Positions 42,321 through 45,397 of a stretch of 64,000 bases of DNA are shown piece after piece. Each line of letters begins with the position of its first letter. Position 1 is the first letter of the stretch. A model generated the notes under the pieces. The model saw only the letters and a list, made by a program, of their open reading frames with translations, searched no databases and was not told the DNA's origin. The position numbers and the translations under genes were made by a program. This DNA comes from an uncultured Acetatifactor sp. (GTDB taxonomy: Bacteria > Bacillota > Clostridia > Lachnospirales > Lachnospiraceae), in assembly GCA_947629645.1 (NCBI GenBank), contig CANREV010000005.1, positions 12,067 to 76,066 on the forward strand, in the 5' to 3' direction.

Positions 42321-43127
42321 ATGGCATCAAATTTAGTTGCGCCAGTGGAAGATGGCAAGATCGTTGAGACGGAATCCCAGAGTTCCTTAAAGAAAGCGCA
42401 GAGTTCCAATAACGGGATGGATAAGGATGCTTTTCTGCAGCTTCTTGTGGCGCAGATGAGGTATCAGGATCCCCTGGAGCCCACCTCCAACACGGAGTAT
42501 ATCGCCCAGTACGCACAGTTTTCACAGGTGGAACAGATGCAGAATCTGGCGGCTACTTCGGAACTGGCAAGGGCTACGCAGCTGGTAGGACAGGAGGTAT
42601 ACATCAAGACAACGGATTCCACCGGCAATATGAAGTATGTCACAGGCAAGGTGGATTATGTGGTCTTTGAGAACAACAAGGCTTATCTTGCCATCAACGA
42701 ATCGCTGTATTCGCTGGAAGATCTGGATACCGTGGCGGACGCTGCATATCTGGACGCATACAATAAGGCGCTGAAGTTCAGCATCGATATGAACAAGCTG
42801 CCGGCTGTGGGCGGCGTTGATATGACAGACGCAGACGCGATCGACAAGCTGGAAGAGACTTACAACGGCATGAGCGATTACGAGAGGAGTTTCCTGGCTG
42901 AAGAGACTGTGGATAAGCTGCAGAAATACATTGAGAGGCTCAAACAGGTCCGTGCCGCCGCCGAGGAAGCGGAAAAAGGAACCGGAGACGGCGAGAGCAC
43001 GGAAGGCGCGGGAGACGTTGAGGGCTCGGAGGACGTTGAGGGCTCGGAAGGCACCGATCCGGAGAGCGGAAAGGATAACAATAAAGGCGCTGAGGGCGCG
43101 GAAAAAGGAACAGAAACAACGGATTAA
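42321..43127 (+). CDS. flgD: Flagellar hook capping protein FlgD with a C-terminal extension
   Basis: MDKDAFLQLLVAQMRYQDPLEP, AQFSQVEQMQNL, LVGQEV. Confidence 0.93.
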   Translation: MASNLVAPVEDGKIVETESQSSLKKAQSSNNGMDKDAFLQLLVAQMRYQDPLEPTSNTEYIAQYAQFSQVEQMQNLAATSELARATQLVGQEVYIKTTDSTGNMKYVTGKVDYVVFENNKAYLAINESLYSLEDLDTVADAAYLDAYNKALKFSIDMNKLPAVGGVDMTDADAIDKLEETYNGMSDYERSFLAEETVDKLQKYIERLKQVRAAAEEAEKGTGDGESTEGAGDVEGSEDVEGSEGTDPESGKDNNKGAEGAEKGTETTD

Positions 43128-43150
43128 ATTGGACGGGAGCGAGGAGAGAG

Positions 43151-43552
43151 ATGCAGATTAAGAATAACGGATATCTTTCCATTGAGCAGCTGACTGACCA
43201 GTACTTAAGCGGTGCGCAGAAGTCAGAGAACACCCGTGTGACCAGGGAGGGTCTTTCCTTTCAGGACGTTTTGCAGCAAAAGACGCTGCAGGAGGCAGGC
43301 AGCCTTAAATTTTCCAAGCACGCCTTGGGAAGATTGACGGACCGCAGGATCGAGCTGAGTCCGAATCAGCTGGAAAGGCTGAATGAGGGAGCGCAGAGAG
43401 CGGGACAGAAAGGGATCAAAGATTCCCTTGTGATCGTGGATGAATTGGCGTTTATTGTCAATGTACCCAATCAGACAGTTGTGACTGCAATGGACAGCAC
43501 AGAAACAAATAACAATGTATTCACCAATATTAATGGGGCAGTTATCATGTAA
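43151..43552 (+). CDS. Uncharacterised flagellar operon protein (TIGR02530-like)
   Basis: LKFSKHALGRL..R.I, DSLVIV, FIVNV.NQTVVTAMD, VFTNINGAVI; sits between flgD and flgE, as recalled for this family. Confidence 0.85.
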   Translation: MQIKNNGYLSIEQLTDQYLSGAQKSENTRVTREGLSFQDVLQQKTLQEAGSLKFSKHALGRLTDRRIELSPNQLERLNEGAQRAGQKGIKDSLVIVDELAFIVNVPNQTVVTAMDSTETNNNVFTNINGAVIM

Positions 43553-43618
43553 CCGGACCTTACAGGAGGTTACGTCTCCCGAACGACTGACGGAGACGGC
43601 TGTTCCCGGACAGGAGGA
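43553..43618 (+). ncRNA. Candidate structured cis-RNA (three-way junction) in the flgE leader
   Basis: Hairpins ACCT-tacagg-AGGT and CGTCTCC-cgaacgactgac-GGAGACG enclosed by CCGG/CCGG, closing just before the AGGAGG RBS. Confidence 0.5.
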
Positions 43619-43627
43619 ACAAGCACT

Positions 43628-45397
43628 ATGATGAGATCACTTTTTTCTGGTGTGGCAGGTCTTAAAACGCACCAGACCAAGATGGATGTTATCGGTAACA
43701 ATATCGCAAACGTAAACACTGTAGCGTTTAAAAGCAGTTCCATCACTTTCAATGATCTGATGAGCCAGACGACCCAGAAGGCCAGCGGGCCTAACGCGGC
43801 TACCGGCACCGGCGGCGTCAATGCGCGCCAGATCGGTCTTGGCGTAAAGTCCGCGGCGATCAACATCAATATCACGGGACAGGGTTCCGCACAGTCTACC
43901 GGAAATCCTTTTGATATCATGATCAATGGCGAGAACTTCTTCGTTGTCAGCGATGGCAGCCAGAATTTCTTTACCAGGGACGGTTCTTTCTATGTGGACG
44001 CGGCGGGAAACCTCGCCATGACCAGCAACGGTTATAACGTGATGGGCTGGCAGGTGGATCCGGCCACTATGGATATCAGGAAGGATACCGTATCCGCCCT
44101 GCGTATCATGAGCGCGGCTAACATGACCTATCCGCCCGAGGCCACCAGCCAGGCCAATATGTCCGGTATTCTGGATAAGACGGATAAGGATTCCACCAGC
44201 GCCAACGGCAAGGTGGTAAACCTGAACTTCTTCGATGCGCTGGGATATGAGTACACCGCAAAGTTTACCTTTAAAAAGTCTGATAAGACTGCGGAGGGCG
44301 AGGATTCCTACAGTCTGGAGCTGACCAAGATCCTGGACGCAAACGGCGAGGAAGTGTCAATGGAAGGGGATATCTCATCGCTGTTCGGCGATGACGGCAG
44401 GGTACAGGCAAAGGCGCAGAAGATTACCTTCGACTCCACCAATTATAAGTGGAACGGCACCACCTTAAAGAAAAAGGGAGACAATTCCGACATTGTAGAC
44501 ATAAAGGAGCTCTTTGACGGAGGCGCCATAAAGAAGCCTCGTACGACCAATGTTACGGTAAACGGGTCTGCCACAGCCACCGTGCAGGACGGCTTGGACG
44601 CCATTGCCAAGGCTTACGGCTTCGAGGGATCCACAGACGAGTTTCTGAATATGTTCTGTGATGTGACCGATGCGGATGGCAAGGTGACAGATACAATCAC
44701 GATTGAGGAGATGATGGCGAACCTGGCGGGAGGGGTGGCTGATAATGCGCTGCCTACCTTTGCAGATGCGGGTGCGGACGCTGACACTTCGTTTATGTCT
44801 TCCGGCCGCAATTTCACCGGCGTCACTGTTACCTTTAACTCTGACAACGGCGAATTTCTGGGCATCAACGGACAGTCTACGGTGTCGAACCAGACGCTGA
44901 ACCTGTCCCAGCTGGGCGGAAATTTCTCCGACATCAATATCGATTTCTCCCAGATCACGGAATATTACAACATGGGTACTTCCACCATCGGCGCGGACAA
45001 GGGAGATCTGGATGGACTGGGCACGGGACGTAAGCTGGGCGACATGATCGGCGTGTCCGTACAGCAGAACGGTATGATCTACGCAAGCTACGATAACGGC
45101 ATGACCAAGCTTCTGGGTCAGATCGCCACCGCAAGCTTCGCCAACGCTTCCGGTCTGGAGAAGCAGGGCGACAATCTGTATTCCGCAACGCTCAACTCCG
45201 GAGAGTTCGATGGCATCGGCGTGGATATCACCGCGGGAGGCGGTTATATGTCTACCGGCCAGCTGGAGATGAGCAACGTGGATCTGTCCACCGAGTTTAC
45301 GGAGATGATCACCACCCAGAGAGGATTCCAGGCAAACAGCCGTATCATCACGGTTTCCGATACTTTGCTGGAGGAACTTACCAACCTGAAGAGATGA
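43628..45397 (+). CDS. flgE: Flagellar hook protein FlgE (long form)
   Basis: MMRSLFSGVAGL...MDVIGNNIANVNT, FTRDGSF, LEMSNVDLSTEFTEMI.TQRGFQANSR. Confidence 0.95.
   Translation: MMRSLFSGVAGLKTHQTKMDVIGNNIANVNTVAFKSSSITFNDLMSQTTQKASGPNAATGTGGVNARQIGLGVKSAAININITGQGSAQSTGNPFDIMINGENFFVVSDGSQNFFTRDGSFYVDAAGNLAMTSNGYNVMGWQVDPATMDIRKDTVSALRIMSAANMTYPPEATSQANMSGILDKTDKDSTSANGKVVNLNFFDALGYEYTAKFTFKKSDKTAEGEDSYSLELTKILDANGEEVSMEGDISSLFGDDGRVQAKAQKITFDSTNYKWNGTTLKKKGDNSDIVDIKELFDGGAIKKPRTTNVTVNGSATATVQDGLDAIAKAYGFEGSTDEFLNMFCDVTDADGKVTDTITIEEMMANLAGGVADNALPTFADAGADADTSFMSSGRNFTGVTVTFNSDNGEFLGINGQSTVSNQTLNLSQLGGNFSDINIDFSQITEYYNMGTSTIGADKGDLDGLGTGRKLGDMIGVSVQQNGMIYASYDNGMTKLLGQIATASFANASGLEKQGDNLYSATLNSGEFDGIGVDITAGGGYMSTGQLEMSNVDLSTEFTEMITTQRGFQANSRIITVSDTLLEELTNLKR

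Follow-up and report, generated by a model that had tools for sequence, protein, structure and literature searches.

A conserved RNA structure between a TIGR02530 gene and flgE in Clostridia: probably a new regulatory RNA for hook protein production

The TIGR02530-flgE locus

The DNA analysed here (the window) is a stretch of 64,000 nt from an uncultured Acetatifactor sp. of the family Lachnospiraceae (assembly GCA_947629645.1, contig CANREV010000005.1, positions 12,067 to 76,066), which carries flagellar genes in the order fliK, flgD, TIGR02530, flgE, flbD, motA and motB. A preliminary description, made from the sequence alone, had proposed that a compact structured RNA fills the 75 nt separating the TIGR02530 stop codon from the start of flgE, the hook protein gene. 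This gap is exactly 75 nt (43553-43627), and sequence comparison identifies it as the core of a conserved RNA with a predicted three-way junction formed by the helices P0, P1 and P2 (Table 1). Covariation and placement bear out the proposal that a conserved and structured cis element lies immediately before the flgE ribosome-binding site. That the element is a functional part of the flagellar mRNA, set against this ribosome-binding site, is very likely, and it probably represents a new regulatory RNA for hook protein production.

The gene upstream of the spacer scores 116.8 bits with the NCBIfam model TIGR02530, above the curated cut-off of 83.2, and matches PF12611 with an E-value of 2.2e-10 (40.6 against a cut-off of 21.1). 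The sequence AGGAGG(AAC) before ATGATG is kept in the flgE leaders of relatives, and throughout this phylum flgE and flgG begin with AUGAUG almost always. FlgE of the window has a big central insertion relative to the 351-position FlgEFG model, and only two separate stretches are matched.

Table 1. Coordinates of the RNA element and adjoining genes in the window
Feature	Coordinates	Strand	Remarks
TIGR02530 / Pfam PF12611 'Flagellar_put' gene	43151..43552	+	133 aa; last codons and stop codon belong to the predicted RNA fold
P0 5′ strand, GGGGCAGU	43535..43542	+	Gly-Ala-Val codons of the conserved C-terminal peptide; predicted 8-pair duplex with 43599-43606
P1 hairpin	43550..43572	+	Outer stem UAACC (43550-54) with GGUUA (43568-72); covariation, GGA conservation
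P1 inner parts	43555-57; 43558-60 with 43564-66; 43561-63; 43567		GGA bulge; CCU paired with AGG; loop; bulged A
P2 hairpin	43573..43598	+	Stem CGUCUCC (43573-79) with GGAGACG (43592-98); 12-nt loop CGAACGACUGAC (43580-91) with GAnnGAnnGA signature
P0 3′ strand, GCUGUUCC	43599..43606	+	Ends 5 nt before the flgE ribosome-binding site; closes the predicted three-way junction
flgE Shine-Dalgarno, AGGAGG	43612..43617	+	Read from sequence
flgE, flagellar hook protein	43628..45397	+	589 aa; NCBIfam FlgE models, TIGR03506 at 227 bits; gene 3′ of the element

Structure and covariation of P1 and P2

Folded alone, the 75-nt spacer has a free energy of -27.1 kcal/mol (z = -2.31 against dinucleotide shuffles, 5 of 200 of which are equally good), and a 141-nt context folds no better than its shuffles (z = -0.40). 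The fold of a single sequence is weak evidence, and the case therefore rests on comparison. In the fold predicted for the 141-nt context, a pairing of the final sense codons of TIGR02530 (UUAUCAUG, 43542-43549) with the flgE start region (UAUGAUGA, 43627-43634) encloses the whole element.

An unbiased measure of covariation was taken from an ordinary MAFFT alignment of 28 species that had not been fitted to any structural model. In this alignment, 91.7% of the cells of the P1 and P2 structure are paired, with 99 double-change cells, and none of 500 column shuffles was as good. When the partners are slid by one to three columns, pairing drops to 39-55%. Among 89 diverse instances aligned to a covariance model, 94.8% of cells are paired, with 414 double-change cells, in an alignment that is itself model-fitted.

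P2 is the best-supported helix, as all seven of its pairs show compensatory changes and 94.5% of cells are paired (89 sequences). The outer stem of P1 is 93.6-97.3% paired, with compensatory changes in four of its five pairs, and contains the UAA stop codon of TIGR02530 (43550-52). In the alignments of relatives, the stop codon covaries with the opposite strand of P1 as UAA:UUA, UAG:CUA and UGA:UCA. The unpaired positions are strongly conserved as well. The GGA of the P1 bulge is near-invariant (G in 89/89, G in 89/89 and A in 87/89), the G and A of the three GA steps in the P2 loop, which reads nGAnnGAnnGAn, are kept in at least 86 of 88 sequences, and the complete GAnnGAnnGA signature is present in 84 of 89. 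Near-invariance of both the bulge and the loop bases, which spans more than 100 families, suggests a specific recognition surface or a tertiary fold, not merely a stable hairpin. A pseudoknot search with a simple score, in which variable loop columns were paired with flanking and start-codon columns, gave only trivial matches of pyrimidines with invariant purines.

These results sharpen the structure drawn in the preliminary description. Its 7-bp hairpin CGTCTCC/GGAGACG with a 12-nt loop is real and corresponds to P2, and the topology of a three-way junction closing just before the ribosome-binding site stands, but the closing helix and the register of the first hairpin do not stand as drawn. 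The former, a pairing of CCGG (43553-56) with CCGG (43606-09), is missing from the minimum-energy fold, and the 3′ CCGG is not kept in 20 congeners. The latter, ACCT/AGGT, has no compensatory pairs, and 11 of 28 sequences cannot form its A-U pair. It is displaced by UAACC/GGUUA followed by the GGA bulge and CCU/AGG, an arrangement with four of five outer pairs compensatory. All of the sequence strings that were quoted are found, except that the second ACAGGAGG lies at 43610-43617 and not at 43611-18. Its occurrence twice is a coincidence of the 3′ arm of P1 and the ribosome-binding site in Lachnospiraceae; elsewhere this arm reads GGGAGC, GGAAGC and the like.

A closing helix that uses coding bases

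The predicted closing helix P0 pairs the 3′ end of the TIGR02530 coding sequence with the segment following P2. Corresponding pairs in relatives are GGAGCCGU:ACGGUUCC, GGAGCGG:CCGCUCC, GCUGUAAUU:AAUUACAGC and GGCUGUAA:UUACAGCC. In 163 distinct sequences, cognate strands form a duplex of -10.7 kcal/mol on average, compared with -7.6 kcal/mol when non-cognate strands are combined (permutation p <= 5e-5). Within P0, where Gly/Ser and Ala codons have synonymous third positions, these bases form A-U, U-A, C-G and G-C pairs. The helix is frequent, not universal; a few lineages pair these codons with a segment 5′ of P1 instead. In the genus of the window, the GUUCC of the P0 3′ strand can also pair with GGAAC at the ribosome-binding site, as seen in minimum-energy folds; this alternative pairing was not seen in the other families compared.

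Distribution, placement and additional copies

The neighbourhood of the TIGR02530 gene was compared across 34 related genomes. The element immediately follows the stop codon in 20 of 21 species of the same genus, and eight other families of the order have it as well. Individual loci vary. One congener (L013 in G010) has kept TIGR02530 and flgE and lost the motif, and carries an unrelated small hairpin, AACCUUUAGGUU, in the spacer. In another (L006 in G004) the motif follows TIGR02530, but flgE is not the next gene. Two loci of family f9 (L043 and L053) have an additional open reading frame (ORF) of 118 aa (MDLSYKLS...) between motif and flgE, and the flgE leader of L040 is longer by about 190 nt.

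A covariance model of 53 positions, designated R1 and built from P1 and P2 only, was then used for searches. It gives one strong match in this genome; two further weak matches (E 0.06 and 0.09), one just 5′ of a 391-aa open frame that is uncharacterised and one within a long open frame, do not have flagellar-looking neighbours and were dismissed as chance. Matches are present in 135 of 301 genomes of the order and in 173 of 401 from a phylum-wide sample, and a genome seldom has more than one. A likeness to flgE leaders of other Firmicutes, which the preliminary description had mentioned, is thus confirmed, at about 45% of genomes in both samples. Approximately 77 of the 89 diverse instances are located between the TIGR02530 gene and flgE. 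Among 73 clear TIGR02530 contexts, 55 have the stop codon within P1, and the median distance from the end of P2 to the flgE start is 30.5 nt.

Twelve loci with a second copy not adjoining TIGR02530 were compared, one of which is a variant TIGR02530-flgE locus. At ten of the twelve, the copy lies between flgF and flgG, 20-201 nt 5′ of flgG, and locus L162 of the phylum set brings these flgF-flgG copies to 11 (L172-L174, L176, L178-L183 and L162); the genomes concerned have TIGR02530 elsewhere. A further copy (L175:2567-2620, minus strand, genome G387) is found 245 nt 5′ of a gene for a 773-aa flagellin, with no ORF in front, and appears to lie within the 5′ untranslated region of the flagellin gene. 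Given the copies before flgG and flagellin, P1-P2 behaves as a portable leader of abundant axial-subunit genes, and is not just a 3′ appendage of TIGR02530. In family f94, the flgG copy is canonical and the flgE copy has a degenerate P2 loop (L187, L189).

The element has no counterpart in Rfam 15. A scan of 42800-44200 with all 4227 families (E <= 10) returned only chance matches to C/D-box and serC families at 13-15 bits, and a scan of the whole window at gathering thresholds returned one tRNA only. Full-text literature searches on flgE RNA motifs, TIGR02530 and PF12611/DUF3766 brought up no description of the element.

Co-occurrence with TIGR02530

The TIGR02530 gene is present in 261 of the 401 genomes of the phylum sample and in 170 of the 173 genomes with the motif; Bacillus subtilis, included in a control panel, lacks it. 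The three motif genomes without it comprise two weak matches and one fragmented assembly. Conversely, 91 genomes carry TIGR02530 without an R1 match, which is largely an artefact of search filters. With the filters off, all 20 of a sample of these genomes gave a match just 3′ of TIGR02530, 18 of them at 16.8-36.9 bits and two more weakly (12.9 and 13.1 bits), often with a P2 loop that has diverged.

Flagellated genomes lacking TIGR02530 were drawn from 35 genomes that are CsrA-positive and TIGR02530-negative, 31 of which have FlgE/F/G genes. No credible motif was found in 30 of these, the only matches (E 0.015-0.03) being away from flagellar genes. The 31st, G572, is a fragmented assembly in which the match is a flgF-flgG copy. 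The association of motif and gene that the preliminary description had put forward as a check therefore holds on both counts, in the 170 of 173 motif genomes with the gene and in the 30 flagellated genomes that lack both. In one genus, G693 has flgD and flgE separated by 36 nt, and G385 has the order flgD, TIGR02530, motif, flgE. More generally, in flagellated lineages without TIGR02530 (L209 of G693 and L211 of G416), flgE follows flgD after 29-36 nt. Given this short gap, gene and RNA together look like a cassette inserted between flgD and flgE.

The TIGR02530 protein

Proteins of the TIGR02530 family share an invariant FSKHAxxRLxxRxI segment and a C-terminal FTNI(D/N)GAVI peptide. A 2026 survey, which cites Flagellar_put also from Negativicutes such as Acetonema, still lists its function as unknown (PMC13277936). 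The only Pfam family above threshold is PF12611, with weak matches to DUF4258 (PF14076) in 35 of 66 homologs (best E 0.026). The AlphaFold model of the full-length protein was too poor (predicted local distance difference test, pLDDT, 60) and had no significant fold match. A model of the core (residues 50-133) reached a pLDDT of 78.7 and a predicted template modelling (TM) score of 0.67, and consists of a strand, two helices and a three-stranded sheet. The top Foldseek ranks for this core were ParE, CdiA-CT, colicin E5, RelE1 and HigB, at E-values of 0.24-1.2 and TM scores of 0.33-0.48. A profile search against PDB sequences gave nothing relevant (one spurious 25-residue match), and this genome encodes no DUF4258 protein for a profile comparison. 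The label 'RNase-like' in the preliminary description may be apt, as a lead that is consistent with these models and sub-threshold.

The resemblance to the RelE/ParE/DUF4258 (BECR-fold) toxins thus lies in the predicted core topology, the FSKHAxxRLxxRxI segment and the top fold-search ranks. TIGR02530 differs from these toxins in having no antitoxin partner, a fixed position between flgD and flgE, and an additional conserved N-terminal region together with the C-terminal FTNIDGAVI peptide, and all matches are below significance.

Simpler origins and alternative explanations

Several simpler accounts of the spacer were tried and rejected. There is no terminator-like site in 42900-43900, P2 being followed by GCUGUUCC, so that an intrinsic terminator is not supported. 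Readthrough or frameshifting from TIGR02530 into FlgE does not fit the spacer lengths, which are distributed 30/24/22 over the three values modulo 3 (76 loci), with only six spacers both in frame and free of stops; the spacer of the window is in frame and without stops. A small ORF in the spacer has no conserved start codon in the alignments. A sigma-70-like promoter match at 43520-43548 (TTCACC-17-TATCAT) is weak and, with one such match found and 0.5 expected, is attributable to chance. The Phe-Thr codons of TIGR02530 give a -35-like TTYACN in most relatives, and an RNA started by the 43520-43548 match would begin at P1 and lack the 5′ strand of P0.

A regulator already known from flagellar leaders is CsrA, which the preliminary description had suggested as one possible binder. 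A CsrA dimer would bridge the GGA of the P1 bulge and that of the flgE Shine-Dalgarno sequence and repress translation, as on the hag leader of B. subtilis. The invariant P1 GGA, the second GGA in the ribosome-binding site, and the presence of CsrA in this genome and in 153 of the 173 motif genomes (269 of 401 in the phylum sample) all fit this idea, as does co-immunoprecipitation with C. jejuni CsrA, which enriches the mRNAs of flgE (68x), flgG2 (44x) and flaA (PMC4894983). However, a Shine-Dalgarno GGA is common to most such sequences, the P1 GGA lies in a 3-nt bulge between two helices and not in a hairpin loop, and the P2 loop, with no conserved GGA, is a GA-GA-GA loop and not a CsrA site. 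Distribution also counts against CsrA: 20 of the 173 motif genomes have no CsrA (PF02599) match, including all six TIGR02530-carrying genomes of family f48, so it cannot be an obligatory partner. The two f43 genomes, each with both a flgE and a flgG copy, have a sub-cut-off CsrA match or none, and the 30 flagellated genomes without TIGR02530, all of them CsrA-positive by selection, lack the motif. The proposal is thereby weakened, and a CsrA operator is very unlikely. The likeness to the FliW-CsrA-Hag system nevertheless extends to a structured leader 5′ of an axial-gene ribosome-binding site, GGA both in the structure and in the Shine-Dalgarno sequence, and the post-transcriptional tuning, proposed for the element, of a high-copy subunit. 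The hag leader is set apart from the element by the latter's internal GGA bulge, its second hairpin, its closing helix with coding sequence, its presence in lineages without detectable CsrA, and its absence from CsrA-positive flagellated lineages that lack TIGR02530. Motility genes of Clostridia are also known riboswitch targets, e.g., of the cyclic di-GMP (c-di-GMP-I) riboswitch upstream of flgB in C. difficile, and the three-way junction could serve as an aptamer that binds a metabolite or a second messenger and so controls axial protein synthesis. Covarying helices around near-invariant unpaired nucleotides are what a conserved aptamer would show, and, like the P1 helix of a riboswitch, the closing helix ends next to the ribosome-binding site. 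This explanation is improbable. The element is small (53 model positions) and has no predicted family-wide expression platform: the predicted unpaired probability of the ribosome-binding site is 0.49, and 0.49 with the 5′ half withheld (58 species, Wilcoxon p = 0.9), and there is no terminator. Moreover, the closing helix has one strand in translated coding sequence, and a protein operator would more typically show such strict co-inheritance with a single protein gene. The c-di-GMP-I (GEMM) RNA is likewise a cis-regulatory RNA on flagellar genes of Clostridia, but it acts on transcription from a position at the operon's 5′ end, whereas the element is operon-internal, much smaller, and without a terminator or an Rfam match.

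Two further alternatives involve the ribosomes that translate TIGR02530. The hook needs far more subunits than the neighbouring gene products, and a processing or stability element would raise hook protein output relative to the low-copy upstream genes: the message would be cut at or near the element, and P1-P2 would protect the new 5′ end of flgE or the upstream 3′ end. The cut might be made by the upstream protein, as the preliminary description had suggested, if TIGR02530 is RelE-like and acts where a ribosome pauses on the stop codon of its gene. Enzymes of the RelE family cut mRNA at codons in the ribosomal A site, often at stop codons, and the location of the stop codon within the base of P1 (55/73 contexts), compensated whether it is UAA, UAG or UGA, agrees with such a role, as do the RelE, ParE and HigB ranks of the fold search and hairpins that no terminator explains. 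We regard it as unlikely. The motif lies off the stop codon in the copies before flgG and flagellin and in roughly one in four TIGR02530 contexts, invariant bases in bulge and loop would be superfluous if the hairpin were simply protective, and the assignment as an RNase is sub-threshold. A switch that senses translation with no trans-acting factor would instead have ribosomes finishing TIGR02530 melt P0 and P1, after which the CUCC/UUCC-containing 3′ strand of P0 would pair with the flgE Shine-Dalgarno sequence, or the reverse, making flgE initiation dependent on upstream translation. The GUUCC/GGAAC hairpin in the minimum-energy folds of this genus and the Shine-Dalgarno-like 5′ strand of P0 (GGAGC) point this way. 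When a ribosome on the stop codon was modelled by removing the 5′ strands of P0 and P1 in the 58 species, however, predicted accessibility of the Shine-Dalgarno sequence was unchanged (means 0.49 and 0.49; 16 rise and 15 fall). With the anti-Shine-Dalgarno pairing not seen outside the genus, and with the invariant bulge and loop bases and the flgG and flagellin copies left unexplained, such a switch is highly improbable.

A protein-binding operator and its possible partner

The interpretation favoured here, tentatively and as one that could well be correct, is a protein-binding operator with TIGR02530 as its partner, acting on flgE translation; binding, partner and the direction of the effect are what we infer. 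A trans-acting protein would dock on the GGA bulge with its opposed purine and on the GA steps of the P2 loop, beside the ribosome-binding site, and docking would set the output of hook protein from the polycistronic message. Translation initiation is the probable control point, and an effect on mRNA stability is possible. The distal-rod protein FlgG, or flagellin, would be under the same control in some lineages. The TIGR02530 protein, whose gene lies immediately 5′ and is inherited along with the RNA, is the best candidate for the partner and may have a fold of RelE/DUF4258 type.

The proposed logic is that of the autoregulatory operators of L10, L20, S15 and ThrRS, with a small protein encoded on the same transcript, a structured operator abutting the next ribosome-binding site, and co-inheritance of the two. 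It differs from them in that the candidate regulator's gene carries the operator at its own 3′ end and the gene that follows would be the one controlled, in that binding is presumed, and in that the candidate protein is toxin-like (RelE/DUF4258-type, sub-threshold) and not of a ribosomal-protein fold. Termite-flg and flg-Rhizobiales are orphan flagellum-associated Rfam motifs and, like the element, are conserved structured RNAs upstream of flagellar genes that came from comparative genomics. Their taxa, structures and contexts all differ from those of the element (Clostridia; TIGR02530-flgE and flgF-flgG), which the Rfam 15 scan did not match to any family.

Several points weigh against a TIGR02530-bound operator. 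Co-occurrence is partly forced, because the main copy of the motif overlaps the gene and joint gain or loss would follow under any hypothesis, and the unlinked flgG copies (about 5-8% of genomes) are too few for an independent test. P0 and the 5′ arm of P1 are covered by ribosomes finishing TIGR02530, so that the full fold would form only on messages that are untranslated there. Likeness to RelE/DUF4258 is below all thresholds (Foldseek E of at least 0.24 and TM below 0.5; Pfam E of at least 0.026), and a RelE-type fold alone does not imply the binding of a free RNA hairpin. ParE-type members of the RelE/ParE fold are not RNases.

A more specific form of the operator hypothesis, speculative and unlikely in its entirety, is that TIGR02530 is a domesticated protein of RelE/DUF4258 fold which recognises the RNA at its own stop codon and, in trans, on the flgG and flagellin leaders. 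Its binding or ribosome-dependent cleavage would couple the synthesis of high-copy axial subunits to the state of the flagellum, and the protein might be removed via the flagellar export apparatus, as FlgM is. If true, a toxin-derived protein and its RNA operator would form a new checkpoint module, carried across Clostridia as a cassette inserted between flgD and flgE.

Significance

With more than 170 distinct instances and extensive covariation, the element is a candidate for a new Rfam family, and it gives a first hint at what the TIGR02530/Flagellar_put family does. Should the partner prove to be a RelE-like protein, a toxin fold would have been recruited to housekeeping regulation. Flagellar assembly is a textbook example of ordered gene expression, and those Clostridia and other Firmicutes that have a single giant flagellar operon must supply subunits in widely differing amounts from one transcript. 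The element is positioned where the synthesis of hook, distal-rod or flagellin proteins could be set, and would provide a handle on post-transcriptional control within the operon.

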